Below, in pieces: positions 5,390 through 64,000 of a stretch of DNA of 64,000 bases. The notes below the pieces were generated by a model. That model saw nothing but the letters and a program-made list of their open reading frames with translations, was not told where the DNA came from and ran no database searches. The DNA is from Carcharhinus longimanus (taxonomy: Eukaryota), in NCBI GenBank assembly GCA_030264375.1, contig JASCQW010000162.1, forward strand, positions 82,346,877 to 82,410,876. The letters are read 5' to 3'. The stretch's first letter is position 1. Each line of letters opens with the position of its first letter. A program made the position numbers and the translations under genes.

Positions 5390-5780
5390 AGCATTCTCAC
5401 CTCCGACCCAGAAGGTTGTACTTAGTCCGGGGATTTGAGCACAGAATCTAGGCTAATACAATGTACGACAGAGGGAGTGCTGCCTTGACGAAAGTGCCAC
5501 GTTTCTGATGAGATTTTAATCTAGATGTTTCTGTCCTCTTGGATTGATGTGGAAGTTTCCATGGTACTATGTTGAAGAGCACAAGAGTTGGCCCTGGTGT
5601 CCTGGCCAATATTTATCCATTAACCAACATCACTAAAACTGATCAGGATCATTGTGACAATGTTTGCTTCATGAGTGCAATTTGGCTGCTGTGTTTCCTA
5701 TATTACAACAGTAACTACACCTCAAAAAATACTTTATTGTCTGTAAGGCACTTTGAGACATCTCCGGATCATGCAAGATT
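5390..5780 (+). mobile_element. DeuSINE (SacSINE1-like)
   Basis: Deu-domain-like gagggagtgctgc...ccatggtactatgttgaagagc...ggtgtcctggccaatatttatcc...ttggctgctgtgtttcctatattacaacag and tail ctgtaaggcactttgagac. Confidence 0.75.
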
Positions 5781-5959
5781 TCTGGGAATGAAGAATCTTG
5801 CTAGTTTTCTCACAAAGCTGCACCTTCATCCTTTGGGAAAAGCTGGATTTGGAGTTGGTATCTTAAATTGGTGAAGTGGCTCCTGTTTTGATCTAATGAC
5901 ACTTTTGCACATTGCTTATTTCAGATTGTCCCTCTCTCCAGAGAGTGAGCCCCATGACC

Positions 5960-6245: not shown

Positions 6246-6643
6246 GATGCCAGTCTCCGGGATACTCAGCCCTTCTATATCGTGTGGAGAGGGGGTTACC
6301 TATTCCTGGCACGCCTGGATTCTCAGCTGTCCATATTGATCAATCCAATGGCAAGTTCAATTGTCTATTTTTCCAGTTCCATGGTGATGAGTAGTGAGAG
6401 AACTGGCAATCTGTTTAAGTTGAACTGTGCAACTATAGTGGAGAAGGTGGGGCATGTGATCCATTTATTATGTAGTGTAAAAACATTTTGAAGCTGGTGA
6501 ACTCTGTTCACACTAATTATCAAATCTGTTTGCTTGTCAGCATTTTGGCTTGTACAAACAGCAACTGCAGAATGTAAATGAGTGAAATTTTAAGATCCTT
6601 AAGCAATCCAGACCAGAACATCCCAGGTTTGATACTTAGTCCC

Positions 6644-6927
6644 AGTGAAAACGCCGTTGTTTAAGAAGGGTGCCAAGCAAAAGGCGGGGAATTATAGGCC
6701 GGTTAGTTTAACGTCTGTGGTAGGTAAAATGTTAGAATCCGTCATTAAGGAGNNNNNNNNNNNNNNNNNNNNNNNNNNNNNNNNNNNNNNNNNNNNNNNN
6801 NNNNNNNNNNNNNNNNNNNNNNNNNNNNNNNNNNNNNNNNNNNNNNNNNNNNTTGAATGGTGGGGCAGGCTCGAAGGGCCAGATGGCCTACTCCTGCTCC
6901 TATTTCTTATGTTCTTATGTTCTTATG
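6644..6927 (+). mobile_element. Young CR1 insertion spanning an N-gap
   Basis: TPLFKKGAKQKAGNYRPVSLTSVVGKMLES before the gap; 3' end gaatggtggggcaggctcgaagggccagatggcctactcctgctcct plus short ttcttatg repeats after it. Confidence 0.9.
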
Positions 6928-9092: not shown

Positions 9093-9429
9093 TCTGGAAT
9101 GAGAGTATATGTATACGAATCATGAGCAGGGTAGGTTGCATTAATGGTTAACATGGCATACAAAAACCGAGACCACCTTATAAACAAGAGGCTTAAAGTA
9201 CAACAGCAAGGAGGTTACGATAAACTTTAAAACATTTAGTTTGGCCTCAATTCATAAAATCGCTACTATGCAGATGGAGGCCATTTGGCTTATTGTCTTC
9301 ACCGATCCTCTGAAAGAGCACTCTACCTGCGCTCACTCCCCCCCGGCTCTATCCTGCATTGATCATGGCCAATCCACCCAAGCTGCATATTTCTGGAAGA
9401 CTTTGGAGTATTGTCTAATTTTGGGCTCC

Positions 9430-9845
9430 CACTCCAGCTCTTACACCCCTTCAATCCCTTTAGCCACAAAGATCACATCCAGCTCCCTTTTGAACATATC
9501 TAACAAACTGGCCCCAACCGCTTTCTGTGATAGAGAATTCCACAGGTTCAGAACTCCGAGTGAAGAAGTTCTTTCTCATCTCAGCCCTCAATGGCTTACC
9601 GTTATTCTTCGACCGTGACTGCTAATTCTGGACTTCCCCAATGTCGGGAACATCCTTCCCACATGGTCTGTCCAATCCCATCATGATTTTGTACGTTGCC
9701 ATGAGATCCCCTTGCAACAAACCCAGTTGATCCAGTCTCTCTCATGTCAGTTCTGCTTTCCTGAAAATCATTCTGGTGAACCTTTTGCTGGACTCTCTCA
9801 ATAGCAAGAATGCCCTTCCTCTGACTAGGAGACCAAAACTCTTCA
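9430..9845 (-). mobile_element. CR1 3' ORF2 fragment
   Basis: Minus translation FWSPSQRKGILAIERVQQK, equivalent to CR1 FWSP..RKD...LERVQRR. Confidence 0.8.
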
Positions 9846-10038
9846 GACACCTAAGGGGCAATTTAGCATGGCCAACCCACCTAACCTGCACATCTTTTGG
9901 ACTGTGGGAGGAAACTGGAGGAAACCCACACAGACACAGGGAGAACATGCAAACTCCACGCAGTCACCCAAGGCAGAATCGAACCTGGATTGCTGACATT
10001 GAGAGGCAGCAGAGCTAACCACTGTGCACCATGCAGCC
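9846..10038 (-). mobile_element. HE1/V-SINE-like SINE, 5' part
   Basis: Minus strand gives A-box-like gtgcacagtggttagc and B-box ggttcgattc, then the V-type body. Confidence 0.85.
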
Positions 10039-14575: not shown

Positions 14576-15140
14576 GATTTGATTTATTATTGTCACGTGT
14601 ATTAGCAAACAGCGAAAAGTATTCTTTCTTGCACACTATACAGACAAATCATACTGTTCATAGAGAAGGAAACGAGAGCGCAGAGTGTAGTGTTACAGTC
14701 ATAGCTGGGGTGTAAAGAAACTTAGTGTGAGGTAGGTCCGTTCAAAAGTCTGATGGCAGCAGGGAAAAAGTTGTTCTTGAGTCAGTTGGTGAGTGACCTC
14801 GGACTTTTGTATCTATCTTCTGACGGAAGAAGGTGTAAGAGAATTTCTGGGATTTGTGGATCCTTAATTATGCTGGCTGCTTTGCTGAGGTAGTGGGAAG
14901 TGTAGGCAGAGTCAATGGATGGGAAGCTGGTTTGCGTGATGGATTAGGCTACGTTTGCAACCTTTTGTAGTTCCTTGTGGTTTTGGGCAGAGCAGGCACC
15001 ATACCAAGCTGTGAACTACCAAATAAATAATGCTTTTTATGGTGCATTGGTAATAGTTGGTGAGCATTTTGGCTGACGTGCCAAATTTCTTAGTCTTCTG
15101 AGAAAGTAGAGGCATTGGTGGGCTTTCTTAACTATAGTGT
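14575..15140 (-). mobile_element. Rex1/Babar-clade LINE 3' fragment
   Basis: KKFGTSAKMLTNYYQCTIKSI; 3' end tttgatttgatttattattgtcac. Confidence 0.8.
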
Positions 15141-15323
15141 TACATGCATGTTGAGGCCTGGAGCTGTGAACAATGATGCTCAAGGTTCCAATTTCATATC
15201 ATTGCAAGGTGGTTGATCGGGAATCCCTCTCTGCCACTGATGTGCTCTGGAAGGATTTCCCAGATTTCTCTATTTCTCTATTCAACCACATTTAAAAAGC
15301 CAGCAAGTGCTGGGGTGGGACTC

Positions 15324-17925: not shown

Positions 17926-18500
17926 NAGCAGGAGCCCATACCAAGCTGTGATACAACCAGAAAGAATGCTCTCTATGGTGCATCTGTAAAAGTTGGTGAG
18001 AGTTGTAGCTGATATGCCAAGTTTCCTTAGTCTTCTGAGAAAGTAGACGCATTGGTGGGCTTTCTTAACTATAGTGTTGGCATGGGGGGGACCAGGACAG
18101 GTTGTTGGTGATCTGGACACCTAAACACTTGAAGCTTTTGACCCTTTCTGCTTCGCCACCAGTGATTGTAGACAGGAGTATGTTCTCCACTATGCTTCCT
18201 GAAGTCGATGACAATCTCCTTCATGTTGATGACATTGAGGGAGAACTTATTGTCATTACCACCAGTTCACCAGATTCTCTATCTCATTCCCGTATTCTGT
18301 CTCCTCATTGTTTGAAATCTGAGCCAGTACGGTAGTGTCATTGGCAAATTTGAAAATCAAGTTGGAGGGGAATTTGACCACACAGTCATGGGTGTATAAG
18401 GAGTACAATAATGGGCTGAGAACACAGCCTTGTGGGGCACCGGTACTGAGGATGATTTGTGGGGTGGTGGTGTTGTCTATTCTTACTGATTGTGGTCTGT
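17926..18500 (-). mobile_element. Rex1/Babar-clade LINE RT fragment
   Basis: IVKKAHQCVYFLRRLRKLGISATTLTNFYRCTIESILSGCITAWYG; upstream TGAPQGCVLSPLLYSLYTHDC. Confidence 0.9.
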
Positions 18501-21639: not shown

Positions 21640-22150
21640 TTTGGAGTCATGTGTAAACCAGGCCTGGTAAGGATGGGCAGCGCAGTGGTTAGCACTGTTA
21701 CCTCTCAGCACCTGGGACCTTGGTTTGATTACTGGCTTGGGTCACTGTGTCTGTGTGGAGTCTGCATGTTCTCCCCATGTTTATGTGGATTTCCTCCCAC
21801 AGTCCAAAAGGCATGCTGGTTAGGTGCCAGGCTAAATATTCCCTCAGTGTACCCAAACAGATGCTGAGTGTAGCGGCTAAGGAATTTTCACAGTAACTTT
21901 GTAGCAGTGTTGATGTAAGCCTACTTGTGACACTAATTCTTAAACTTTAAAACTTAAAGGACAGTAGTGAACCAAATGGGTTTTTATAACAATGATTCAT
22001 CGTCATTATTAGACTTTGAATTCCGAATTTAAAAAAAATTCAATTCAATTTCACCATCTGCCATGGTGGGATTCAAACCCAGGTCCCTAGAGGATTGTCC
22101 CAAGTCTCTGGATTACTAGTGCAGTGAAAATTCCGTTTGTCATTGCCTCC
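21640..22150 (-). mobile_element. tRNA-headed SINE with long variable arm, split by a B-tail V-SINE at 21676-21955 (+)
   Basis: Head ctgccatggtgggattcaaacccaggtccctagagg...ctctggattactagtgcagtg at about 22058-22150; body continues at 21640-21675. Confidence 0.8.
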
Positions 22151-23581
22151 CAAATCATAACGTGGTATCTGAAATGGGATGCTATTTCAATTCTCTTCGC
22201 CAAGTCCCAGTGATATTCAGCACCAATATCCTTCCACTTGATGGCTGGGACAAAATGCTTTAGGCTCCCAACTTGAGCATAATCCTACTTGATGGAGAAT
22301 GGATTCCAATGATTTCTTCATAGGTTGGTGAGTTGTGTGCTGAACAGCACGCCTGTAATGGATCATTGAAATCTACAAACAAGTGAGAAGGTACAACAAC
22401 ATTGCAAATGTGGTGATGATAGCAGTGACTTAAACTCCATTCCTCTGTTATTACGTGACATTCTGGAGACTTATTTTAAAACAAGGTTGAACTTTTTTTG
22501 AAGCTGGAATTGAATGTATTTACCTAATCAGCGTAATTTTCACTGCTTCCTTTGGAGAAATATGAACCACTCATTGAAATTTAAAACAAAAACACCTTAA
22601 TCATCATTTTCCAAACCTTGGATCTATTTGGAAATCGATATACTTAACCCCATATGAACCTAATCAGGGTTATTGAAGAAAACAACATATGTTGAAGTTT
22701 TTTGTCTTGCACCCATCAGGACAAATGCAAGAATGCCAGATTTCAAGGGGAACAGCTGTTTCCACTGCACAAGATAAGGGTGCTGATTGGTTAGCAAGTT
22801 TTTTTCTGATTTGTGAAGGCACTTGCTGTATGATTTTGTTTAATTCAAAGGAAATGAGCATTACCTTTTTATCTACACGTGTATGAATTTATGTAGCTTG
22901 TAGCAAGCTTAGGTGAGTTACATTGTGAACCTGACTGATTGGACTTAAGTAATTCTCAGCGTACTGTGCCTACGATACAAATGAGTAACATGGGTATGAG
23001 TTTTGGTGCTGGGGCAAAATCAGGAAAATAGGCCCCAGTGACTGATGGATTGTGTCAAATAGCACATGTCTCTGGCTACTCGCAATTGGAAGAGTGCTGG
23101 CTGTACTCAGCCAGCCTGTGCTGGCAAAACTCCAAAGCACAATGTCTAATAATCGATGTGATTCTCTGGACAACATTTGCTGGACAATTCCAAGTGTGCT
23201 AAGGATTACATTAGCAATCAATTTCAGATTCAATTGGGCAAGCTCTCATTGTGACTCATTTACAGTTGCACGATGCTGCATCTATTTATACACTGCTGTC
23301 TTCCGCAGGCAAAAGGGACTTGTCTAGGCATTGTTTAATTCAATGAAAAGAATAGGAAATAATAGTTTGGGGTGCATTCTCCATGGCAATGCCATGACCA
23401 GTTGGAGTCAACTTGCCAAGTAATCAGCACACTCTTTCACATAGTATATATTGTTTTTCTCTGAAATTTGGCATTTTTGCCTTTGTCCCGATTGCAAATA
23501 AAAAAGATTCAATGGTATGTCTCTTTCTCAGTAATGCTCCAAGTGCTGTACTGCTATCTGATCACCTAATCAGTTTTTGAA

Positions 23582-26500
23582 ATTCATTTATGGGATGTGG
23601 GTGTCACTGGCTTGGTCGGCATTTATTGCCCATCTCTAATCTTCAGAAGATGGTGGTAAGCTGCCTCCTTAAACCACTGCAATCCCTGACACCCATAGTG
23701 CTGTCAGGGAGGGAGTTCCAGGATTTTTGATCCAGCAATCGTGAAGGGGCAATGATATATTTCCGAGTCCAGATGATGAATGACTTGAAGGGAACCTCTG
23801 CTCTTGTTCTTCTAGATGGTAGTGGTGGTCATGGGTTTGGAAGATGCAGTTTAAGGAGTCTTGATGAGTTCCTGCAGGGCATCTTGTAGATGGTACACAC
23901 TGCTGCCCTGGTGGTGAACAGAGTGAATGTTTGTGGAATGGGTAACCATCAAGCAGATTGCTTTGTCCTGGATGGATGTTGAGTTTCTCCAGTGTTGTTG
24001 GAGCTGCACTCATCCAGGCAAATGAAGAGTGTTCCACTGCCATCCTGACCTGTGCCTTGTAGATGGTAGACGTATGTTGGGGAACTGGGAGGTGTCACCT
24101 GCCGTAGGATTCCTACTGCTCTGGTAGCCGCAGTATTTATATTGCTAGTTCAGTTTCTGATCAATGGTAACCTTCAGGATGTTGGCTTGTGGTCTCAGCG
24201 ATGATGATGGCGCTCGAGTGTCAAGGGACGATAGCTAAATTCTCTTATTGGAAATTGTTTTATATGTTAACAATTGGGACTTGGATATGGGGCACAATTG
24301 GAAAATATGCAAATGACACAAATTGTCTGTGTAGTGGATAGTGTCCGAGATAGTGGAATGGGCAGGAAAGTGCAGATAAAGTTTAACTCTAAGTGTGAGG
24401 TAATGAATTTAGGGAGTCAAATTGTAAAAAGGAATACACAACAAATGGGAATATGCTGAGAAAAGCAGATGAAGTTAGACATCTTGGTGTGCAAATACAA
24501 TAGTTCCCAAAGATAGCAGTGCAGATATGGTTGTAAAGATAGCTTACCGAATGCTCTCCTTTGGTAGATGTATAAAATACAAAAGTAGAGATATAATGAT
24601 GAAACTACATGAGACACCGAGGCCACAACATGTAGTTCTGGTTACCATGTTACAGACGGATGTAATTGCTCTGGAGTGCAGAGACAATTTGCTAGAATTT
24701 TGCCGGGGATGGAGAATTGTAGTCATGAGAGAATGGAGAGTTGGAGTTGTTTTCCTTGGAACAGAGAAGGCTGAGGGGTGACATAATTGAGGTCAACAAA
24801 ATTGTGAGGGGTAGAGAGTGAGTAGAAGGAACTTGTTCCCTTGGCAAAGTGTTTGAAAGCCAGGGGATCAAGTGGCAGAAGGATTAGAGGGGACATGAGG
24901 AAAGATATCTCCAAAGATGTGTGGGATAAGTTAATTGGTCATGCTAAATTTTTCCCTTGGTGTACCTGAACAGGTGCTGGAGTGTGGTGACTAGGGGATT
25001 TTCACAGTAACTTCATTGCAGTGTTAATGTAAGCCTTACTTGTGACNNNNNNNNNNNNNNNNNNNNNNNNNNNNNNNNNNNNNNNNNNNNNNNNNNNNNN
25101 NNNNNNNNNNNNNNNNNNNNNNNNNNNNNNNNNNNNNNNNNNNNNNTTAATGTAAGCCTACTTGTGACATTAATAAAATAACAAAAGCTTTTTTTAGGCA
25201 GAGGAGGTGGGTATCTGGAATTCACTACCTGAGTTGCTGGAGGCATACACCCTAAACTTGTTTAAATAGTATCTGGATCTGAACCTTGAATGCTGTAAGT
25301 TGCCGGGCTATGGGCCAAGTGGAGAAAGATGAAATTAGAAAGGGCAGATGGGTGTCTTCAGGTCAGCATGGACAAGATGGGCCAAATAGCTGCCTCCTAT
25401 GTTGTATCATTTCTATTGTCTATGGTTCTATGGAAATAGATATCGCTTGGCATTTCTATGGCACAAATGTTATTTTTCACTTGTCAGGCCAAGCCTGGAT
25501 ATTATCCAGGTCTTGCTGCATTTAGACATGGACTGCTCCAGTGTCTGAGCAGTCATGAATGACGCTGAACACTGCAGTCATCAGTGAGTATCCACTTCTG
25601 GCCTTGTGATGGAAGAGAGGTCATTGATGAAGCAGCTGAAGATGGTTGTGCCGAGGTCAATACCCTGAGAAACACCTGCAGTGGTGTCTGGAGCTGAGTT
25701 GATTGACCTCCAGTCACCACAACCATCTTCCTTTGTGCCAGGTATTACTCCAACCAGAGGAGGATTTCCCCCTGACTCTCAGACTTCAGTTTAGCTAGTG
25801 TTCCTTAAGGCCACCACACTTGGTCAAATGCTGCCTTAATGTTGAAGGTAGTCACTCTCACCTCACTTCAAGCATTCAGCTCCTTTGTCCATGTTTAAAC
25901 CAAGGGTGTACCGAAGCCAAGAGTTGAGTGATGCTTGCAGAACCCACTAAGCATCCCTGAGTAAGTTATTGCTGCTTGATAGCATGGTTGATTGTGTTTT
26001 ACTAATGATCGCGTGTAGACTGATAGAATGGTAATTGGCCAGGTTGGATTTGTCTCTTGTGTACAGGACATACCTGGGAAATTGTTCTTGTTATTGGGTA
26101 GATGCCAGTGTTGTAGCTGAACTGGAGCAGCTAGGAATGCGGCAAGTTCTATAGCACAAGTTTTCAGTACTACTACTGGAATATTGTCAGGGCCCACAGC
26201 TTTTGCATTGTCTAGTCCTGTCAGCCATTTGTTGACATCATGTGGAATAAATTGAATTGGCTGAAGACTGACATCTGTGATGCTGAGGAGGCGGCGGCTG
26301 AGATGGACATCCACGTGGCACTCCTGGCTGAAGATCATTCTGAATGCTTCAGCCTTTTGCATTGACATGTTGGATTCAGCCATTGGGGATATTTGTGGAA
26401 CCATCTCCTCCAGTGTAGTGTTTAATTGTCCACCACCATTCATGATGTGTGTGGCAGGATTGCAGAGCTTGGATGTGATTCACTAGTTGTGGGAGCATTT

Positions 26501-27826
26501 GACTCGATCACTGGTTGCCTTTGCTGTTGATATACAGATAGTCCTGTGTTTATAGCTTCACCAAGTAGATACCTAATTTTTAGGTACACCTGGTGTTGCC
26601 CCTGGTATGTCCTTCTGTAGTCTTGAACTATGGCTGATCCCTTGGCTTGGTGGTAATGATAGTTGGGGGGACGGGGGGAATGATATTACAGGCCATGAGA
26701 TGATTGTGCTGGAGTACAATTCTGTTGCTGATGGCCCACAGCACCCCATGGATGCCCAGAGAATTGCTAGATCCATCTGAAATCTATCCTATTTAGCACT
26801 GTGCTCATGCCAAACAACACGATTGACAATATTGTCAATGTGAAGATGGGACTTTGACTCCCGCAAAGGTTGTGTTGTTCACTCCTACTGATACTGTCAA
26901 CAACAGATCCATCTGCAGCAGGCAGGTTGGTGAGGGTGAGGTTAAGTATGTTTTCCTGTCTTGGCTCCCTGACCACCTGTCATAGACTCAGTTTAGCAGC
27001 TATGTCCTTTAGGATCCGGTCAACTTCGTCTGTGGTGGTGCTACCGAACCACTCATGGTAATGGGCATTAAAATCTCCCACCCGGACTACATTATATGCC
27101 CTTGCCATCCTGAGTGCTTCCTTCAAGTGGTATTCAACACTGGGGAGTATTGATTCATCAGCTCAGATGGGGGGGAGGGAGGGTATGTGCTAATCAGCAA
27201 TATGCTTCCATGCTCGCATTTGACCTGGTTACATAAGATTTTATGGGGTCCAGAGTCAGTGTTTGGGACTCTAAAGGCAACCTCCTCTGGACTGTCTCCC
27301 ATTGTGTTACCACCTCTGGTGGCTCTGTCCTGCTGTTGGAACAGGACATACCCACAAATGTTGTTGATGGTGTCTGGGACATTATCTGTCAGGTATGATT
27401 TGAGGGTATGACTGTTGCTTGACCAATCTCCCAATTTTGGCACAAGTCCCCAGATGTTAGTAAGGAGGACTTTTCGGGGTCAGTAGGGCTGGGATTGCAG
27501 TTGTCATTTCTATGTGCCAAGGTCAAAGCTGGGTGGTCTGTCCAGTTTCATTCCTTTTTGTTTGTTTATAGCGATTGAATACAACTGCATGGCTTGCTAG
27601 ACCATTTCAAAGAGCAGTTAAGTGTTAACCAAATTACTTTGGGTCTGGAGTCACATGTAGGCCAGACTGGGTAAGAATGGCAGATTTCCTTCTGTAAAGG
27701 ATATTAGTGAACCAGATGTGATTTCTTGACAATCACACTAGCTTCATGGTCATCGTTAGAGGTCATTTGATAGACTGTTAATTCCAGGTTTTTTTAATTC
27801 AGTTTAAATTCCACCATCTCCTATGA
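23582..27826 (-). mobile_element. Near full-length decayed APE-RT non-LTR retrotransposon (CR1/L2-group-like, no visible ORF1) with nested CR1 and SINE
   Basis: APE start VLLTNIWGLVPKLG (about 27465), SYLTDNVPD, QDRATRGGNT, RQENILNLTLTNLP...SISRSE; RT KAVGPDNIPVVVLKTCAIELAA and GVSQGIDLGTTIFSCFINDL; 3' tail gggcaataaatgc...cccacatccca. Confidence 0.9.
24256..25430 (+). mobile_element. CR1 3' half nested in the LINE above and split by a B-tail SINE (24915-25180)
   Basis: FNSKCEVMNLG, YKSRDIMMKLH, CR1 3'UTR; TGGAAAT duplicated at 24249-24255 and 25431-25437. Confidence 0.8.
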
Positions 27827-28604
27827 CAGTTAACTATTTAAACTGAGCTCAGTTATTGGCAATAGTTTATTCTTGAAACCTTGATCTAAATATGCCAGTT
27901 GGGGTGGGGATGTTGGTGCGGGGCAAACGCAGTGATCCTGACGAGCCATTGCTTAAGTTATCCTAAAAGACTTGGACGATCAAGGTTGTCTTTTGTTTTA
28001 ATATCTTTTATTTAATATCATTCAGTGTGCAATGAAGCCAGGAAAGTACAATGCCCATAAGAAAGATTTAGCACTGAGGTATTGATTTGAGAGAAGGAAA
28101 AGTGCNNNNNNNNNNNNNNNNNNNNNNNNNNNNNNNNNNNNNNNNNNNNNNNNNNNNNNNNNNNNNNNNNNNNNNNNNNNNNNNNNNNNNNNNNNNNNNN
28201 NNNNNNNNNNNNNNNNNNNNNNNNNNNNNNNNNNNNNNNNNNNNNNNNNNNNNNNNNNNNNNNNNNNNNNNNNNNNNNNNNNNNNNNNNNNNNNNNNNNN
28301 NNNNNNNNNNNNNNNNNNNNNNNNNNNNNNNNNNNNNNNNNNNNNNNNNNNNNNNNNNNNNNNNNNNNNNNNNNNNNNNNNNNNNNNNNNNNNNNNNNNN
28401 NNNNNNNNNNNNNNNNNNNNNNNNNNNNNNNNNNNNNNNNNNNNNNNNNNNNNNNNNNNNNNNNNNNNNNNNNNNNNNNNNNNNNNNNNNNNNNNNNNNC
28501 CTTGCTGCTGCCGCCATCACACCTGGATTATCTCTTCATAAAAGGAATGACCTTGCATTGAGGTAGGGTCACTTGGATCCCAGCCACCTGCAGATGATAG
28601 GGCT

Positions 28605-30314: not shown

Positions 30315-30632
30315 CCGACAGTTCAAATCCCAAGACAGCAGGTGGGGAAACTGGTTCATTTTAAAATAAATCTAGAATAAAAAGCTAGCATTAGTAATCC
30401 ATGAAAACTAATGGTCGTGAAAACTCTTCTGGTTCACTGATGTCCCTTTAGCTAAGGAACCCTATCTTCCTTATCTGAACCAGTCTGCATGCAACTTCTG
30501 ATGCACGGCAATGTGTCCTCTGGAATGCAGTAACCGCTAAGTTGTGTTCACCACTGCCTTGGAAACAATTAGGAATGAGCAATAAATGGTGACCTTGCCA
30601 GCATGGTTACACATGGCAAATGAACAAAATAT
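30315..30632 (+). mobile_element. Short bipartite derivative: B box, LINE 5' region and LINE 3' tail
   Basis: gttcaaatccc...tctggttcactgatgtcccttta... joined to caattaggaatgagcaataaatggtgaccttgccagc. Confidence 0.7.
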
Positions 30633-36530: not shown

Positions 36531-36714
36531 AACAGGAAATACTGACTATTTCACATTCATAAATATTTTTACAAATTCCCACTGTTGGAAGTCATTAATT
36601 GGTCCAGGTCTGATGTAAACGTAACATGGTTGCATACTGCTGTGTACCAATGCTCAGTTAAGTTTCAGATGGTAAAACTAGTCTATTGTTCGACAGGATG
36701 GGGATGTTGCTAGT

Positions 36715-37045
36715 TAGACTAGCGTTTATGTTGCCCTTGACAATGGTGCCATGATCTACAGAGGTGTAGGTACACCCATAGTGTTGTTGGGGAGGGGATA
36801 GTGAAGGAACTGCAATATACTTGCAAGTCAGGAATCGTGTGGTATAGAGGGGAACCTGCAGATGGTGGTGTTCCTAAGCATCTGCTGCCCTTGTCTTTTT
36901 AAATGGTAGCAATCTAAGGAAGGTGCTGTCTAAGGAGCCTTGGTAGGTTGTTGCAGTGCATCTTGTAGATGGTATGCATTACTGCCATTGGTGGTGGTGA
37001 AGGGAGTGAATTTCGAATGGGGTGCCAATCAAAGCGGGCTGCTTA
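36715..37045 (-). mobile_element. 3' fragment of the 23582-27826 LINE family
   Basis: ggggaacctgcagatggtggtgttcc...gcagtgcatcttgtagatggta...ggggtgccaatcaaagcgggctgc. Confidence 0.75.
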
Positions 37046-37422
37046 GTTCAGTGTTTATACAAATACAAGCACATGTTGATTAGGAGTAGTAGCCCTGATG
37101 ATTCCTCAACCCCTACCAAGAACATCAGGGACTGATCCTCCTTTGTACCACAGCTGATTAGATCTTTTGGTAGAGTTATTGCTTGTTAAGGGAATGGCGT
37201 GTGCCATGACAAATTAGTTAGTGTACAATATTTCAATTAGAATGTCAGCTAGCAACATAACACTTTCAACAACAAAGTTGTGACAACAGTTTGAGTAAGA
37301 AAATAGGCAACATCAGGACTACAAAGGCAACAGCAGAAAATGATAGTCTCTCTCACACACTGGAGACCCAGTGTTCTTAATGTTTATATCCTTTTTTGAA
37401 TAATTAACCACTGTATACCTAC

Positions 37423-43249: not shown

Positions 43250-43690
43250 GAATCATGGAACCAAGGGATGGTACAGCACAGGAGGAGGCTATTTGGCCTC
43301 TTGGGCCTACGTTGAGCCTTTGAAAGTGTTATCCATTTTGTCCTAGTCCCTTGTCCTTTCGTGGCAAACCTGTAAATTTTTTCCCCTTCAATAGTTAGTT
43401 GATTCTCTTTTGAGATATACTATGGAATGTTTCCAGCAATCTTTCAGGTGATGCATTTGGGATTGTGCCAACTCGCTGAATAAAAAAAAAAAATTCTCCT
43501 CACGCCACCTCTGGTTCTTCTGACATGTTAAATCTAGGTCCTCTGCTTGGCAGCCCTGCCTCTGGAAACAGTTGCTCCTTGTCTATTCTATCATACTGAT
43601 TTTGAATGCCCTTCCTGTTCTGAGGAGAAAAATTCCATCTTCTCTAATCTCTCCATGCGACTGAAGTTCCTCATTGTTGGTACCATCCTA
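43250..43690 (-). mobile_element. Old CR1 3' end
   Basis: aatcatggaa...gtacagcacaggaggaggctatttggcc...ttctctaatctctcca. Confidence 0.65.
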
Positions 43691-44865
43691 GCCTGTGTGC
43701 AGACCAGTTAGCCTAACATCAGTATTGGGAAAATGCTAGAGACTATTGTAAAGGATGCAATAACAGGACAGTTGCAAAATGTTAATGGGGTTAGAGTTGA
43801 CATGGATTTATGAAAGGGAAATTGGTTAATTCTGCTGGAGTTTCTTGTGAGCATAATGAGCAAAATAGATAAAGGTGAGAAGGTGGATGTAGTGTATTTG
43901 GATTTTCAGAAAGCTTTGATGTTCTACACCTGGGATTAGGGATAATATATTGGTGTGGACTAAGAATTGGTTAGCAGACAGGAAACAGTGGGAATGAATA
44001 GGTATTTTTCAAAGGGGCAGGCAGTGACTAGTGGGGTCCTGCAGGGATCAGTGCTTGGGTCCCAGCTATTCATGGTATGCATCAATGATTTGGATGAGGG
44101 AACCAAATGTAGTATTTCCAAGATTGCTGATGGTCTGAAACTTGATGGGAATGCAAACGGTGAGAAGGATGTTAAGAGACTACGAAGTGATTTGGGCAAG
44201 TTGATTGAATAAGCAAATACATGGCAATATGATATGGATAAGTGTGAAGTTATCCACTTTAGATGGAGAAAAAGAATGGCAGATTATTATTTAAATTGTG
44301 ATAGATTGGGAAATGTTGACATACATGGATGTCCAAGTACATCAGTCACTCAAAGCAAGCATACACATGCAGCAAGTAAGCAATCAAGAAGGTAATGCTC
44401 TTCATTGGGAGAGGACGTCAGCGCAGAAGCAAGGATGTCTTACTACACCTGTACAGGACCATGGTGAGACTACACCTTAAGCATTGTAGCAGTTTTAGTT
44501 TCCTTTCCCAAGAGAGGATATTATTGCCATAGAGGTAGTGCAGCAAAGGTTCCTGGGATAGCAGGATTGTCGATGAGGAGAGATTGGGTTGACTTGGCCT
44601 GTTTTCACTGGAATTTAAAAGAATGAGAAGGGATCTCATTGAAATGTATTGAATTGAGTTGGACATATTGGATGCAAGAATGTTTCCTCCTAGCTGGGGA
44701 ATCTAAACAAGAGGTCATAGTCTTAGGACACAGGGCTGGCCAGTTATCCAGCCGACTATTGGGCAATGCATTTAGGATTGTGCCAACTTGCTGCATTAAA
44801 ACACTTCTCCTCGAGATACCCCTGATTCTTTTGCCAATTACATTAAATCCAGGTCCTCTACTTGC

Positions 44866-50039: not shown

Positions 50040-50688
50040 GGCTCAACCATGTCGAATGAGGCTAGGAATGTTGCAGCGAGTGACCCACCTCCTGACTCCC
50101 CAGAGCCTGTCCGCCATCGACAAGGCACAAGTCAGGAGTGTGATGGAATACTCCCCACTTGTGTAGATGGGTGTAGCTCTGATACTCAAGAAGCCCAACC
50201 CCATTCAGCACAAAGCAGCCCACTTGATTGGCACCACATCTACAAACATCCAGTCTCCACCACTGACACTCAGTAACAGCAGTGTGTACCATCTACAAGA
50301 TGCACTGCAGCAATTCACCAAAGATCCTTCGTCAGCCCCTTCCAAACCCATGACCATTTCCATTCAGAAGGACAAATAAGAAGTCTCACAACACCAGGTT
50401 AAAGTCCAATAGGTTTATCTGGAATCACGAGATTCCGGAGCACGGCTCCTTCATCAGGCGAGCGGAGAGCGGGGTTTCACAAACACAGCATATATGTGTC
50501 GTTGTCTATACTGTGCCCACCTCGGTCCAACTCCACATCACAGAAGGACAAGGGTGGCAGATACATGGGAAAGAACCACCTGCAGGTTTCACTCCGAGCT
50601 ACTCACCATCCTGACTTGGAAATACATCATCGGTTCCTTCACAGGCCCTGTGTCAAAATCCTGGAATTCTCTCGTGAATGGCATTGGG
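50040..50688 (+). mobile_element. 3' fragment of the APE-RT LINE family, interrupted by a Penelope piece (50376-50540)
   Basis: IQHKAAHLIGT...VYHLQDALQQ; CAGAAGGACAA at 50365-50375 and 50541-50551 flanks inverted pLTR pieces. Confidence 0.8.
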
Positions 50689-51680: not shown

Positions 51681-51944
51681 TCTGGAAAGTTAAGTTGTTC
51701 ATAGTAATGGTGATGGGGGAACCATCGACAGTGTCCATAAGAACTCGACTGGTTCACTCGAGGGAGGGAAATCTGCCATGCTTACTCGGTCTGACCTGCA
51801 GATGGTTACACACACACACCCACACACACCCCACCCTGGATGACTCTGAAATGGCCCCACAGGCCACATCATTGTAACCAACAACTATTCACACCTTGAT
51901 GGAGAGAGCTTGACTGATTGCTGCTCCCCACTCCCCTCCTGCAC

Positions 51945-52380: not shown

Positions 52381-52414
52381 ACACTGATCTTTGCGGTCTC
52401 TTCAGTCACCAGCC

Positions 52415-52572
52415 TGGACATTCTTGGACACTAAGGGGCAATTTAATGTGGCTAATCCATCTAACTTTTACATCTTTGGACACAAAGTGGCAATTTAGCA
52501 TAGTCAATCTCCCTAACCTGCACATCTTTGGACACAAAGGGGCAATTTAGCACGGCCAATCTCCCTAACCTA
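52415..52572 (-). repeat. About three tandem 52-bp SINE-derived units
   Basis: ttggacac-aaggggcaatttagc...aatc-c-ctaacct-cacatct repeated three times. Confidence 0.85.
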
Positions 52573-52829
52573 CTGTGTCTACACTTGCACGTTCCTCCTG
52601 GTGTGCCCAGTTTATTGGGAAATGTCCAGTTTATTGGGCTCTTTACCTTTTAAACCGGTACCATCCTGCACAGAGATCATCATCACACATCATCGAGCTG
52701 CTGGAACACTCAGTCTCTCGGCAATCTGTGCTTCTCCAGGTATCGTTCAGGACGGTGTGATTGACACACAAGTCAGTGACTGAGAGACAGAGGCATGTTT
52801 AATGTTAATGTAAAGTATAGTTCATGCTA

Positions 52830-53435
52830 AACATAGAAACACAGAAACTAGAAGCAGGAGGCCATTCGGCCCTTTCAACCTGACCCACCATTCATTTTGA
52901 TTACGGCTGATCATCAAATTCAATATCCTGATTCTTCCTCCTTCCCCCCACCGTATCTCTCGATCCCTTTAGCCCCAAGAAGAATATCTAATTTCTTCTC
53001 AAAATCACACAGCAGTTCAGCCTCAACTACTTTCTGTGGGGGTGAATTCCACACATTCACCACCCTCTGGGTGAAGAAATTTCTCTTCACCTCAGTCCGA
53101 AAAGGTGTACCCCTCATCCTTAAACTGTGACCCCCGAGTTCTGGGCTCCTCCCACCATCGAGAACATTCTTTCTGAATCTACCCTGTTAGAAGTATATAA
53201 GTTTCTACGAGATCCTCTCTCACTTTCTAAACTCCTGTGATTTTATTCCTAATCGACTTAGTCTCTCCTCATATGACAGACCTGCCATCCCAGGAATCAG
53301 CCTGGAAAACCTTCGCTGTGCTCCCTCTGTAACAAGGAACATCCTTCCTCAGATAAGGACACCAAAACTGCACACAATACTCCAGGTCTGTCCTCACCAA
53401 CACCCTGTACAATTGGAGTAAAACATCCCCATTCA
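52830..53435 (-). mobile_element. CR1 3' end
   Basis: LLQLYRVLVRTDLEYCVQFWCPYLRKD; FRTEVKRNFFTQRVVNVWNSPPQKVVEA. Confidence 0.9.
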
Positions 53436-53445
53436 ATGAAGATAA

Positions 53446-53985
53446 AAAGATTTGTAGGTTAAGTGGATTAGCCATGCTAAATTGCCCCTTAGTGTCCAAA
53501 GATGTGCAGGTTGGGTGGATTGGCCATGATAAATTGCCCCTTAGTGTCCAAAGATGTGCAGGTTGGGTGGATTGGCCATGCTAAATTGTCCCTTAGTATC
53601 CAACGATGTGCTGGTTAGGTGGATTAGCCATGCTAAATTGCCCTTTAGTGTTCAAAGATGTGCAGATTAGGTGGATTGGCCGTGCTAAATTTAATTTATT
53701 TGATTTGATTTATTATTGTCACATGTATTCACATAGTGAAAAGTTATGTTTCTTATCCAACAAAGTGCTGGTTAGGTGGATTGGCCATGCTAAGTTGTCC
53801 CTTAGTGTTGAAAGATATGAAGGTTAGGTGCATTAGCTATGCTAAATTACTGCTAACTGTCCAAACATGTGCAGACTAAGTGGATTGGCCATGATAAATT
53901 GTCCCTTAGTGTCCAAAGATGTGATAATGTGGATTGGCCATGCTAAATTGTCCCTTAGTGACCAAAGATGTGCAGGTTAGGGGGA
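53446..53985 (+). repeat. Tandem array of about 9.5 x 52-bp HE1 internal units
   Basis: Unit aaagatgtgcaggttaggtggattggccatgctaaattgccccttagtgtcc; interrupted at about 53691-53755 by a Rex1-type 3' tail. Confidence 0.9.
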
Positions 53986-53987
53986 TT

Positions 53988-54239: not shown

Positions 54240-54759
54240 NNNNNNNNNNNNNNNNNNNNNNNNNNNNNNNNNNNNNNNNNNNNNNNNNNNNNNNNNNNNN
54301 NNNNNNNNNNNNNNNNNNNNNNNNNNNNNNNNNNNNNNNTTCTAAACTCTGAGTACAGACCCAGAGTCCTCAAACATTCCTCATACGATCAGAGAACCTT
54401 CTAAATATGGCCTGACTCCTTTTAATGATAAGAATACTTTCTGCAGTGAGTTATTATCTGGAAAGTACAACCTGAAAAAATGGTGAAAGCAAATGCAGTA
54501 TTAACTTCAAAAGGGCATATAGCCAGAACAGGCCTCCAACTTTGCTGTGTCAGGACCAGGAAATTATGTCAATGCCAGGGTCCTGGCATACGAGTTTCTG
54601 GCAAAGTATAATCTGCATGTCCTGATTTTAGCTTATTATAATTCAGGTCAGAAATTCCCAAGTGTTTAATGAAGTCTGCCTGGGATCATAAATTTTGCAC
54701 TTTGAATTTGGTTAGTGTGAGCATGAGAAATTTCATTTTGGGTACAACTCCAACCAGTG

Positions 54760-55408
54760 GAGAGTTCCCCTTTTGATTCCAATTGATTCCTATTTAGCTA
54801 AGGCTCATTGATGCCATACTTGGTCAAATGCTGCATTGATGTCAAGGGCCATCACTCTTACCTCTGGAATTTAGCTCTTGTGAACCAAGGCTGTAATGAG
54901 ATCAGGAGCTGAGTGGCTCTGGTGGAATTCAAACTGACTAGCTCCAGGTTATTGCAAAGCAGGTGCCACGTGATCACTTAACTAATAATCGAGAGAATTA
55001 GATTTCTCCTACTTTGTGTATAGGGCACTTCTCTTCATTGCTGGGCAGATTTGGCTAAAGGCACCACAAGTTCTGGAGCACAAGTCTTCAGTGTTATTGC
55101 TGGAATATTGTCAAGGCCCATAGCTTTGGCGTTATCCTGTGCTTTCAGCCGTTTCTTGCCATCGTTGCATTAAATTGACTGAAGACTGGCAACTATGATG
55201 CTGGGGACCACTGAACGAAGCCAAAATTGATGGATTTCATTCTAATGAAGGACATTAATGAAGCAGATGGGTTTTGTGATGATGCTTTCATGGTCATCAC
55301 AAGACTTTTAATTTGCCATAGCAGGATTCAAACCCAGGTCCCCAGAGCATTACCCTGGGTCTCTGGATTACTAGTCCAGTAACAAAGCCGCTATGCCACC
55401 ACCTTGCC
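54760..55408 (-). mobile_element. Internally deleted APE-RT LINE copy carrying the tRNA-like head
   Basis: RT pieces matching 25770-26290 (ttggtcaaatgctgc; gctggaatattgtcaaggccc) run into the 5' body at about 55235-55312 and the tRNA head at 55313-55408. Confidence 0.8.
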
Positions 55409-59508: not shown

Positions 59509-60335
59509 AATCCTTTTGATTAGTGGGGAGTAATTGAACTGTACAGACCAGGAGGCAATCACGTTTCATTCTTGCTCCCTGGTGAGTTAACTAGTCTCCC
59601 CTGGAGTGACAGTAAGAGGCATTACTATTGGCTTCAGCTGCCACTCCTGAATGGCCATTGATTACTTTTGGAAGCGTATACGCGCAGTATTGGATAAGGA
59701 GAGGATCAGGATCTGCTGTAATACAGACTAACAGCACTCACTATCTACAAGAAAGTCAAGTAAGAAGTTGCATTTATATAGCATTTTTCACCACTTCTGC
59801 CCCCCCCACAAACTCTTTTATAACCAGTGAGGTGAAATTGACTGCCCTTCGCATCAATGCCATATTTCACCAAGTGTGGCATCAAAGAGCTCTTGCAAAA
59901 CTAGTCAATGGGAACTGGGGGGAGAAAACTCCCAGCTGGCTCGCGTCATACTGAGCACAAAGATGGTTGTGTTGGATGGAGATCAATCATCTCAGCCATA
60001 GGATATCACCGTAGGAGTTCAAGTAGTGTCCTAGACCTAACCATCTTCAGCTGCTTCAATAAATGCTGGAGTAGCCAACAATATCTACATCCCTTGAATG
60101 AATAGAAAATATAATTACTGAAGGAAACACAATAGCTAATTGTCCCAGAAACAGCAATTAACTGGCTGACCAGATCATTGTTATTTTGGGGATTCATTAA
60201 AGGATAAATATTATGTATAGCACATGACTGTCTGAATAATACTGTGGGATTGTTCATGTTTTAATCCTTTTGATTAGTGGGGAGTAATTGAACTATACAG
60301 ACCAGGAAGCAATCCCATTCCATTCTTGCTCCCTG
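59509..60335 (+). repeat. 73-bp direct repeat pair (59509-59581 and 60263-60335)
   Basis: aatccttttgattagtggggagtaattgaact-tacagaccagga-gcaatc...cattcttgctccctg present twice with a few substitutions. Confidence 0.85.
59880..60103 (+). mobile_element. LINE RT piece fused directly to the family's 3' tail
   Basis: gtgtcctagacctaaccatcttcagctgcttCAATaaatgctgg...acatcccttgaatgaat. Confidence 0.65.
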
Positions 60336-62918: not shown

Positions 62919-63747
62919 AACATCTGCCAACATTGCTGGTTCATTATTTACTTATGGCACTTCTACAATTTTAAGTCACTGCATTATAATAATCTATTTT
63001 TTCTGCTCCTTCAACTCTCTCTGGAGTTGTTAAAATGTTCATCTCTCAATTGCGTGGCAGTAATTCTCTCCATGGCTTCATGTTCTCATCATTTTTTAAT
63101 TCAATTATGGGAAATGGGCATTACAAACAGTCTGCATTTAGTGTCCCCCTGTATCTGCCCTTCAGAGAGCAGGGATGAACCAGCTCCCTGATCTACTGCA
63201 ATCTGTGTTGGGTTGGGTAACCCATTATGCAGTTAGGAGGGAGTTCCAGGATTTTGCCTCAGCAGCGATAAAGGATGACGGTGTTTCTATGAGCTCTGCT
63301 CCAGGAGGTAGATTGTAGGTTTTGAAGATGATGGTGGCTGAGTGCTGATCAAGTAGATTGTCTGATCTTGGCTGGCGTTGAACTGTCATCTTCCAGCTCA
63401 ACCACCAACAGAAATCTTTCATTCCTCTGACTCTCACATCTTGCGCTTGATTCCCACTTTAATCCACGTTGGTGACTGTGTCTCCAGATATCTAAACTCC
63501 ATGCTTTGAAATCCTCTCCCTACTTACCTCCATCAACTTTCATTTTAAATCCCACGCCCTTGCCAAACGTCTGGGAACGATTTTGATTTTTCCTTGGCTT
63601 GGAAATCAGTTTATTTTTCCTTTGCATCTTTTTGACCTTGCTTGTAAAGGGTTGTCTCAATGTTTGCTGTTGTAATGTTACAAAAATTCAGTTACTTCCT
63701 TTGGCGTTTAGTAATTTGCTGTGAAATGAGAGTTCTGCTTTCAAAAG

Positions 63748-64000
63748 GCAGCAGTGTAGTGGTATAGTAACAGGACATGTAATCCACAGGCCCAGGATAA
63801 AGCTCTGGGGACCAAGGGTTGAATCCCACCAGATAGTGAAATTTGAATTCAATAAGGATCTGAAATTTAAAGGCTAACAGCATCTGTGAAACCATTGACG
63901 ATTTGTTGTAAAGCCCTATCTGGTTCACTACTATCATTTTAGGGAAATAAATCTGCCACCTTTAGCTGATCAGGCATGTATGTGACTCCAGGCCCACAGC
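63748..64000 (+). mobile_element. tRNA-headed SINE/LINE 5' end, cut by window edge
   Basis: ggcagcagtgtagtggtat...taatccacaggcccaggataaagctctggggaccaagggttgaatccc, then a body matching 27620-27826 (minus). Confidence 0.8.

Follow-up and report, generated by a model that had tools for sequence, protein, structure and literature searches.

The 64,000-nucleotide (nt) stretch of Carcharhinus longimanus DNA analysed here (contig JASCQW010000162.1, positions 82,346,877 to 82,410,876; hereafter the window) raises the question of whether an autonomous, protein-coding long interspersed nuclear element (LINE) can begin with the tRNA-like head of a short interspersed nuclear element (SINE) and be transcribed from it by means of RNA polymerase III (Pol III). 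Located on the minus strand at 23575-27827, the element in question is, judging by nucleotide identity, a decayed copy of an elasmobranch Zenon LINE of the CR1 group. It is very probable that the architecture of this LINE itself starts with a tRNA-like head, and the reading that we consider best, with a probability of roughly 0.6, is that of an autonomous LINE that would be transcribed by Pol III and translated non-canonically.

A previous sequence-only reading had treated positions 23582 to 27826 as one LINE encoding an apurinic/apyrimidinic endonuclease (APE) and a reverse transcriptase (RT). The APE-RT remnants were recognised again, but part of the interval is a CR1 insertion in the RT region, which lies on the opposite strand and carries another SINE and a 100-N gap; after its removal, the net length of the copy is 3,070 nt. 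The nesting gives an age order of Zenon copy, CR1 3' fragment and SINE inside the CR1 piece. The order of APE and RT, and remnants of both in one frame, are seen by translation and tblastn, and Pfam supports them via relatives at scores below the curated cut-offs, namely P0002 (Exo_endo_phos, E 0.0014; Atlas PF03372 clusters score 0.95), P0010 and P0012 (RVT_1, E 5e-4 and 7e-4), while a Pfam search with three open reading frame (ORF) pieces of the window gave no APE or RT match. Numerous stops and frameshifts make this a dead copy; at 3.07 kb net and with APE-RT remnants, it is neither short nor non-coding, as a SINE would be.

The N-terminal motif of the APE, KVLLTNIWGLVPKLG, begins at 27473, 354 nt from where the copy starts at its 5' end (27827), a distance close to the 360 bp estimated earlier. 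Neither this leader nor the leaders of the elasmobranch consensuses discussed below (~380-430 nt) leave room for ORF1, as had been proposed. A profile built from three head-bearing copies (63745-64000 on the plus strand, 22158-21955 and 55412-55240 on the minus strand) matches 27827-27638 from model position 93, which is just behind the head. Since no significant alignment to a head remnant was found upstream of 27827 (P 0.47-0.89), the long copy is 5'-truncated by ~80-90 nt, in line with the ~90 bp suggested before. A possible AACTG(A) repeat at both of its ends is too short to be trusted.

The body that forms this leader stands directly behind a tRNA-like head at 63748-64000, 21955-22150 and 55235-55408; the profile and the A and B box words agree with the original description of these loci. 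In the head, an A box and a D-arm are followed by an anticodon arm, whose 7-nt loop has AGT (Thr) at its centre, and then by an extra hairpin and a B box; the B-box word also occurs at 22079-22069 and, with one mismatch, at 63816-63826. ARAGORN predicted no tRNA genes, and an Rfam search of the whole window yielded no tRNA match; the head alone aligned with the long-arm tRNA-Sec model (12.5 bits, E 4.7) in a cloverleaf layout with the AGT anticodon loop. Because these model scores are not significant, the tRNA origin of the head rests on its layout. Folding gave a z-score of -2.2 for the head of copy C, and the heads of copies A and B fold no better than shuffled sequences. MetaSINE, in which a tRNA-Thr-like head precedes the 66-bp Meta domain, agrees in the Thr-like head, and two words of the body had no match in one supplement file, in an exact-word search that is insensitive.

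Family identity was derived from Table S2 of PMC13343379, which lists ten Zenon consensuses, seven from elasmobranchs (five species) and three from hagfish and coelacanth; the first 400 nt of each were compared, and what is said here of the consensuses and of that study refers to these parts and to the accessible text and tables. The study reports Zenon LINEs from coelacanth, hagfish and five elasmobranch species, none with ORF1 and each with a poly-A tail; it states that the elasmobranch Zenons are absent from every repeat repository, and Zenon occupies 0.7-6.8% of six elasmobranch genomes. The 6.8% figure probably includes short forms. Positions 27718-27580 of the long copy are identical to ScyCan_Zenon-1 at 122 of 139 nt and the head of copy C to the first bases of CarCar_Zenon-1 at 68 of 75 nt (hand counts); membership in Zenon rests on such identity to consensuses that PMC13343379 placed in the Zenon clade. 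Because the element is a Zenon, whose lineage has no ORF1, its ORF1-less architecture is ordinary and adds no surprise, so that the earlier observation of the absence stands and its supposed unusualness does not. A Vingi or RTE identity was rejected, as the leader matches Zenon consensuses.

All seven elasmobranch consensuses (2,886-3,314 nt) start with the head, continue into the body and reach the pre-APE region; they end exactly at the first bases of the head, with species-specific head variants, and none of the three hagfish and coelacanth consensuses starts in this way. The element of the window resembles the elasmobranch elements (CarCar, RhiTyp, ScyCan, SquAca and HypSab) in leader (88% identity) and head (91%, hand counts), in the single APE-RT frame without ORF1, in an A-rich tail and in a length of ~3.3 kb. 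The A and B boxes are present in all five species although the spacer varies: dogfish has an extra hairpin that nearly copies the anticodon arm and whose pairing is kept through two-sided changes relative to white shark (hand reading), whereas the stingray consensus has lost this hairpin and retained both boxes. The insertions given as longest in Table S3 measure 3299, 3299 and 3322 nt against consensuses of 3288, 3293 and 3314 nt in three species, and 3220/3283, 2870/2886, 3240/3096 and 4347/3244 nt (insertion/consensus) for the other four. Four B-box words compared with the first 400 nt of 1,003 consensuses of Table S2 gave three matches, all in elasmobranch Zenons, so the consensus pipeline does not generally produce tRNA heads; the control is imperfect, as other LINEs share no 5' body with a SINE. 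No long copy was found to run into a different 5' untranslated region (UTR) or an ORF1.

Copy C provides the corresponding evidence within the window. Its head, body and RT pieces are contiguous at 55408-54741 (54760-55408 in the sequence-only reading), the RT piece matching 26289-25741 (E 1e-29), and the copy is flanked by CTCATG at 55413-55408 and 54727-54722, a 6-mer repeat with a chance probability of 6.6%. The match of its last 16 nt to the tail of the long copy is reached by 0.1% of random windows, and matches to two other tails by 4.7% and 26%. Copy C is best read as a single insertion that runs from head to tail, has lost two internal stretches and is bounded by the repeat (54728-55407); together with the seven consensuses from five shark and ray species, it bears out the proposal that the autonomous element begins with a tRNA head. 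Internal deletion appears to be common in the Zenon family, because copy F joins RT to tail and copy D joins body to tail.

Short shared words are present at the deletion junctions of copies C (55243 and 54742) and F (60057). Large internal deletions are also seen in the relatives P0010, P0012, P0021 and P0026, where splicing could explain the gene-model cases. In seven aligned window copies, short A-runs follow the tail, indicating a poly-A rather than a microsatellite tail; the CR1 insertion instead ends in a TTCTAT-type repeat. A 73-bp direct repeat, 93% identical, lies on either side of copy F (59509-59581 and 60263-60335). In total, Zenon-derived DNA makes up ~5,973 nt (9%) of the repeat-rich window (41.9% GC, 1,094 N), in 13 segments (Table 1).

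Table 1. Zenon copies and their parts in the window.
Feature	Position	Strand	Remarks and evidence
5' leader of long copy	27474..27827	-	Body common with short SINE-like copies; head missing, 5'-truncated; nhmmer E 6.8e-22
Upstream AUG (MKLD/MKPD...)	27549..27551	-	Out of APE frame in the family; starts of the HypSab, CarCar and RhiTyp consensuses translated by hand
APE endonuclease region of long copy	26850..27473	-	Stops and frameshifts; matched by relatives P0001 (E 4e-15) and P0002 (E 3e-13)
Linker and RT region of long copy	25436..26850	-	Broken; tblastn with P0010 and P0012; translation
Later insertion outside the element, CR1 3' fragment	24256..25435	+	TGGAAAT on each side; holds SINE 24910-25182 (-) and N gap
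C-terminal ORF part of long copy	23661..24255	-	Broken; matches 50063-50375 (E 7e-44) and 37047-36772
3' tail of long copy	23575..23660	-	AATAAA and short A-run, common to short copies; alignment of 7 window tails
tRNA-like head of copy C	55315..55408	-	A box 55398-55388 and B box 55334-55324, with AGT (Thr) anticodon loop and extra hairpin between them
Copy A, head and body	63747..64000	+	Cut by window end; profile search
Copy B, decayed head and body	21955..22150	-	Split by another SINE, probably resumes at 21676-21638; profile search, translation
Copy C	54728..55407	-	Head plus 170 nt of body; RT piece and final 16 nt of tail, each preceded by a deletion
Copy D, short, SINE-like	30318..30630	+	B-box remnant, body joined directly to Zenon tail; profile E 4.7e-13 (30322-30508)
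Copy E, decayed body only	51703..51817	+	Profile search
Copy F	59826..60108	+	RT piece joined to tail by internal deletion; short shared word at junction
Copy G, 3' ORF fragment	50063..50675	+	Two pieces, 50063-50375 and 50540-50675
Copy H, 3' fragment with tail	63092..63290	-	
Copy I, 3' fragment with tail	36690..37047	-	

Homologous proteins point to the same order of parts. A phmmer search with the APE piece found 16 proteins and a profile search 29, giving 30 distinct proteins, mostly gene models on decayed copies. In P0001 and P0008, translated body sequence stands in front of the APE at significant scores (above all 200 shuffles), and P0015 and P0017 begin at the end of the body, likewise ahead of the APE; since splicing is possible, gene models give the order and not the exact distance. 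A head-like stretch in P0008 was not significant, and neither full-length protein searches with two window pieces nor a PDB search with P0021 gave a match. P0028 is a ray SLC25A44-like isoform annotated at NCBI whose N-terminus matches the Zenon APE, an exonised or mis-annotated piece.

Hand translation of the white shark, whale shark and stingray consensus starts indicates that a stop precedes the opening of the APE frame, which contains no AUG in the visible part; the APE motif is reached there only by the stingray sequence. The upstream AUG (MKPD..) is conserved and offset by one base from the APE frame in the translated consensuses; in the long copy, this AUG is in the APE frame only by way of a 1-nt indel near 27515. 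Among the gene models that use the upstream region, P0001, P0015, P0017, P0019, P0020, P0021 and P0024 enter the APE frame at differing points, and P0018 and P0029 come from the third frame. On this evidence, the APE frame seems to have no in-frame AUG. Such a layout agrees with the routes that an uncapped RNA would require, namely initiation internally or at a non-AUG codon, or else a frameshift. Routes of this kind are discussed for non-LTR elements in the accessible text of PMC3894237.

The sense strand offers a further indication of the polymerase. Runs of at least four T (T4) terminate Pol III transcripts. The long copy has a single such run in 3,070 nt, against 6.6 expected from mononucleotide and 4.2 from dinucleotide composition (P 0.015 and 0.03), and the 13 Zenon segments together have six in 5,973 nt (14.4 and 12.3 expected, P 0.01 and 0.02). 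Control repeats of the window have no deficit, with 17 runs in 3,358 nt of CR1 (12.6 and 16.5 expected) and four in 945 nt of Rex1-type sequence (2.9 and 3.0 expected), and the deficit is specific to the Zenon element and to this strand. In the APE-RT-tail parts, 2 of 32 T3 runs are extended to T4, compared with 21 of 69 in the controls (Fisher P 0.005). None of the seven elasmobranch consensus starts contains a T4 run, and all three other Zenons do (by eye; the seven are close kin). The T-run check that had been suggested, run here on the window copies, gives a modest signal that goes in the predicted direction and is not conclusive.

At the level of sequence, the elasmobranch Zenon is an autonomous retrotransposon of ~3.3 kb with a single APE-RT ORF and a tRNA-Thr-like head in first place. 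The A and B boxes of the head would form an internal Pol III promoter and, because they would act from inside the transcript, every full-length insertion would carry its own promoter in the manner of a SINE. Pol III would be able to read the full 3.3 kb because T4 terminators are scarce in the sense strand, a deficit that would reflect their avoidance, and would stop at a flanking T-run. Translation of the uncapped RNA would need no in-frame AUG: it would begin internally or at a non-AUG codon, or reach the APE frame through a frameshift out of the short upstream frame. The protein would bind the 3' tail and insert the element by target-primed reverse transcription, as is established for the class. 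The short head-body-tail copies, which have both ends in common with the LINE, may be its internal-deletion derivatives, or descend from an older SINE that supplied its 5' end; the linker of copy D, which looks nearer to the dogfish consensus than to the other consensuses (by eye), suggests that short forms are old. The fullest version of this picture, a 3.3-kb coding element made by Pol III from end to end, translated without cap and AUG, kept across sharks and rays, with a head taken from a SINE, and probably partnered with an ancient vertebrate SINE body, would have about even odds.

Several observations weigh against transcription by Pol III or against a headed LINE as such. A translated Pol III RNA of 3.3 kb would lie far outside the usual range. 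The distance between the A and B boxes is 64 nt in the head and 44 nt in the other SINE of the window. Measured against the element's own rate of T2 to T3 extension, the T4 deficit has P = 0.06-0.09; G4 runs are also somewhat low (10 versus 14.6), and the tested copies are ~25% diverged and non-independent. The only long copy of the window has no head, and template switching could have produced copy C as a chimera; the flanking repeat of copy C, taken alone, has the chance rate given above. Read-through of the head into protein was looked for in the 30 proteins, and the five weak matches among 90 comparisons (head B or C, P 0.01-0.02), none of them plausible, were treated as chance. Intact ORFs in Table S3 number 0/2313, 1/1419, 3/612, 1/294, 0/396 and 0/59 for six of the seven consensuses, and, because they are nearly absent, the family is taken to be old and perhaps inactive or extinct.

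Two other explanations were considered. The head may truly be part of the LINE and yet not be its promoter, the RNA being made by RNA polymerase II (Pol II) from a promoter in the body or by host read-through, with the head fold working at the RNA level, as a guide for cleavage at a precise 5' end like the R2 and RTE ribozymes, as a stabiliser or as a translation element, or persisting as a relic. We regard this as possible but distinctly less probable than Pol III transcription. In the accepted view, Pol II transcribes autonomous LINEs, several clades of which use a ribozyme to trim the 5' end (PMC5786205, accessible text), the stems of the head stay paired across species, including the two-sided changes between dogfish and white shark in the extra hairpin, an AATAAA lies within the tail, and the T-run evidence is borderline. 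Against this explanation, the A and B boxes are the best-kept parts of the head, whereas the extra hairpin is lost in stingray; the T4 deficit is specific to element and strand, and the long copy's body does not exceed shuffled sequences in folding (z -0.77).

The other explanation, which we consider improbable, is an ordinary bipartite SINE, abundant and with a body shared with the 5' UTR of the LINE, whose head was fused onto LINE consensuses by the extension procedure, copy C being a one-off template-switch chimera. Extension tools can merge repeats that have a common segment, the one long copy of the window is headless, and a short head-body-tail form exists (copy D); bipartite derivatives of Zenon are on record (PMC6740152), as are bipartite SINEs of RTE and Vingi (PMC5786205), as far as the accessible parts of both papers go. 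The consensuses, however, were grown outward from RT seeds, manually inspected and re-extended at the 5' end (PMC13343379), and all seven, from five genomes, end at the first bases of the head, with species-specific variants. In addition, the top insertions span the whole consensus, copy C possesses both ends and a flanking repeat, and a Pol II-transcribed LINE would have no reason to avoid T4 runs within its ORF.

The window also contains other repeats. Canonical CR1 fragments of a family separate from Zenon occur at 1-450, 6640-6752, 9390-9850, 43690-44700 and 53010-53450. LINE 3' fragments at 17927-18300 and 14580-15150 (minus strand), which served as T-run controls, are presumably of the Rex1/Babar type. 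An array of ~52-bp units derived from the 3' part of the common SINE of the window occupies 53446-53987, with an inverted partial copy ~1 kb away (52409-52573). Near-identical flanks of 100-N gaps (8554-8712/8813-8970 and 25012-25046/25147-25182) probably reflect assembly overlap. The segment at ~5548-5874 (plus strand) may be SacSINE1-like, with the Deu domain of such SINEs and a tail of the L2 type. A Deu-SINE or SacSINE1 identity was dropped for the Zenon body, since SacSINE1 carries an L2 tail, shared with L2-2_CM, and the tail of the body is that of Zenon; the body also presumably differs from the Deu domain.

Among known systems, R2-type elements are a precedent for the translation of uncapped LINE RNA. 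R2 (as well as R1 and R4) has no Pol II promoter of its own and is co-transcribed with rRNA genes and released by a ribozyme (PMC5786205), but these elements are site-specific and borrow the transcription of the host locus, whereas Zenon is dispersed and would carry its own Pol III promoter. The bipartite SINEs Bov-tA, CoeSINE4, SINE2_Gav and ERE4B also combine a tRNA head, a piece of a LINE 5' UTR and a LINE 3' tail; there, the head sits on the non-coding derivative of an RTE or Vingi LINE and the autonomous partner has none, while in the elasmobranch Zenon the coding element itself is headed and belongs to the CR1-Zenon clade. In the accessible text of the same study, RTE and Vingi are the sole LINEs reported to supply the middles of SINEs, and autonomous LINEs were taken to be Pol II-transcribed (PMC5786205). 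Persaeus, a derivative of lepidopteran Zenon with an internal deletion, is, like copy D, a short form of Zenon 5' and 3' ends, but it has no homology to tRNA, 5S or 7S RNA and no Pol III promoter, according to the accessible text of PMC6740152; the 5' end of its parent Zenon is then not tRNA-like, because Persaeus has no such homology. Bivalve SINEs share only the tails of Zenon (PMC11481361), and the reverse arrangement, SINEs with a LINE-derived 5' end, is reported in PMC4758252, in the parts accessible.

The accessible main text of PMC13343379 gives no match for 'tRNA', 'promoter' or 'polymerase', and its sole match for 'SINE' is a reference; the tRNA head is present in the published Zenon sequences but unremarked there. 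No tRNA-headed autonomous LINE is described in the accessible parts of PMC5499810, PMC4824008, PMC4758252, PMC7245038, PMC5753468 and bioRxiv 10.1101/150482, searches of openly accessible papers showed no report of one among the matches listed, and motif searches in paper texts and in the accessible supplements of three SINE papers found no description of the body. A tRNA-headed autonomous LINE thus appears to be unremarked in the literature searched, and this holds even if the RNA is made by Pol II. The novelty is the head, the absence of ORF1 being already known for Zenon.

The body (27580-27720) and the tail (23575-23660) of the long copy may resemble MER131. MER131 is an ancient amniote repeat that the accessible text of PMC5753468 places among unclassified SINEs, with a poly-A end; the likeness, if true, would favour the capture of a SINE by a LINE and would link MER131 to a Zenon partner. 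The LINE would then have taken its head from a SINE, whereas borrowing usually goes the other way, and the use of a SINE body as the 5' leader of a CR1-group LINE would bear on the origin of conserved SINE bodies. Under the working rule (PMC5786205, as far as accessible), LINEs are coding and transcribed by Pol II and SINEs are non-coding and transcribed by Pol III; a Zenon with the head of a SINE would break this split and, if the reading is true, would provide a natural long coding Pol III RNA in a family that fills up to 6.8% of shark genomes.

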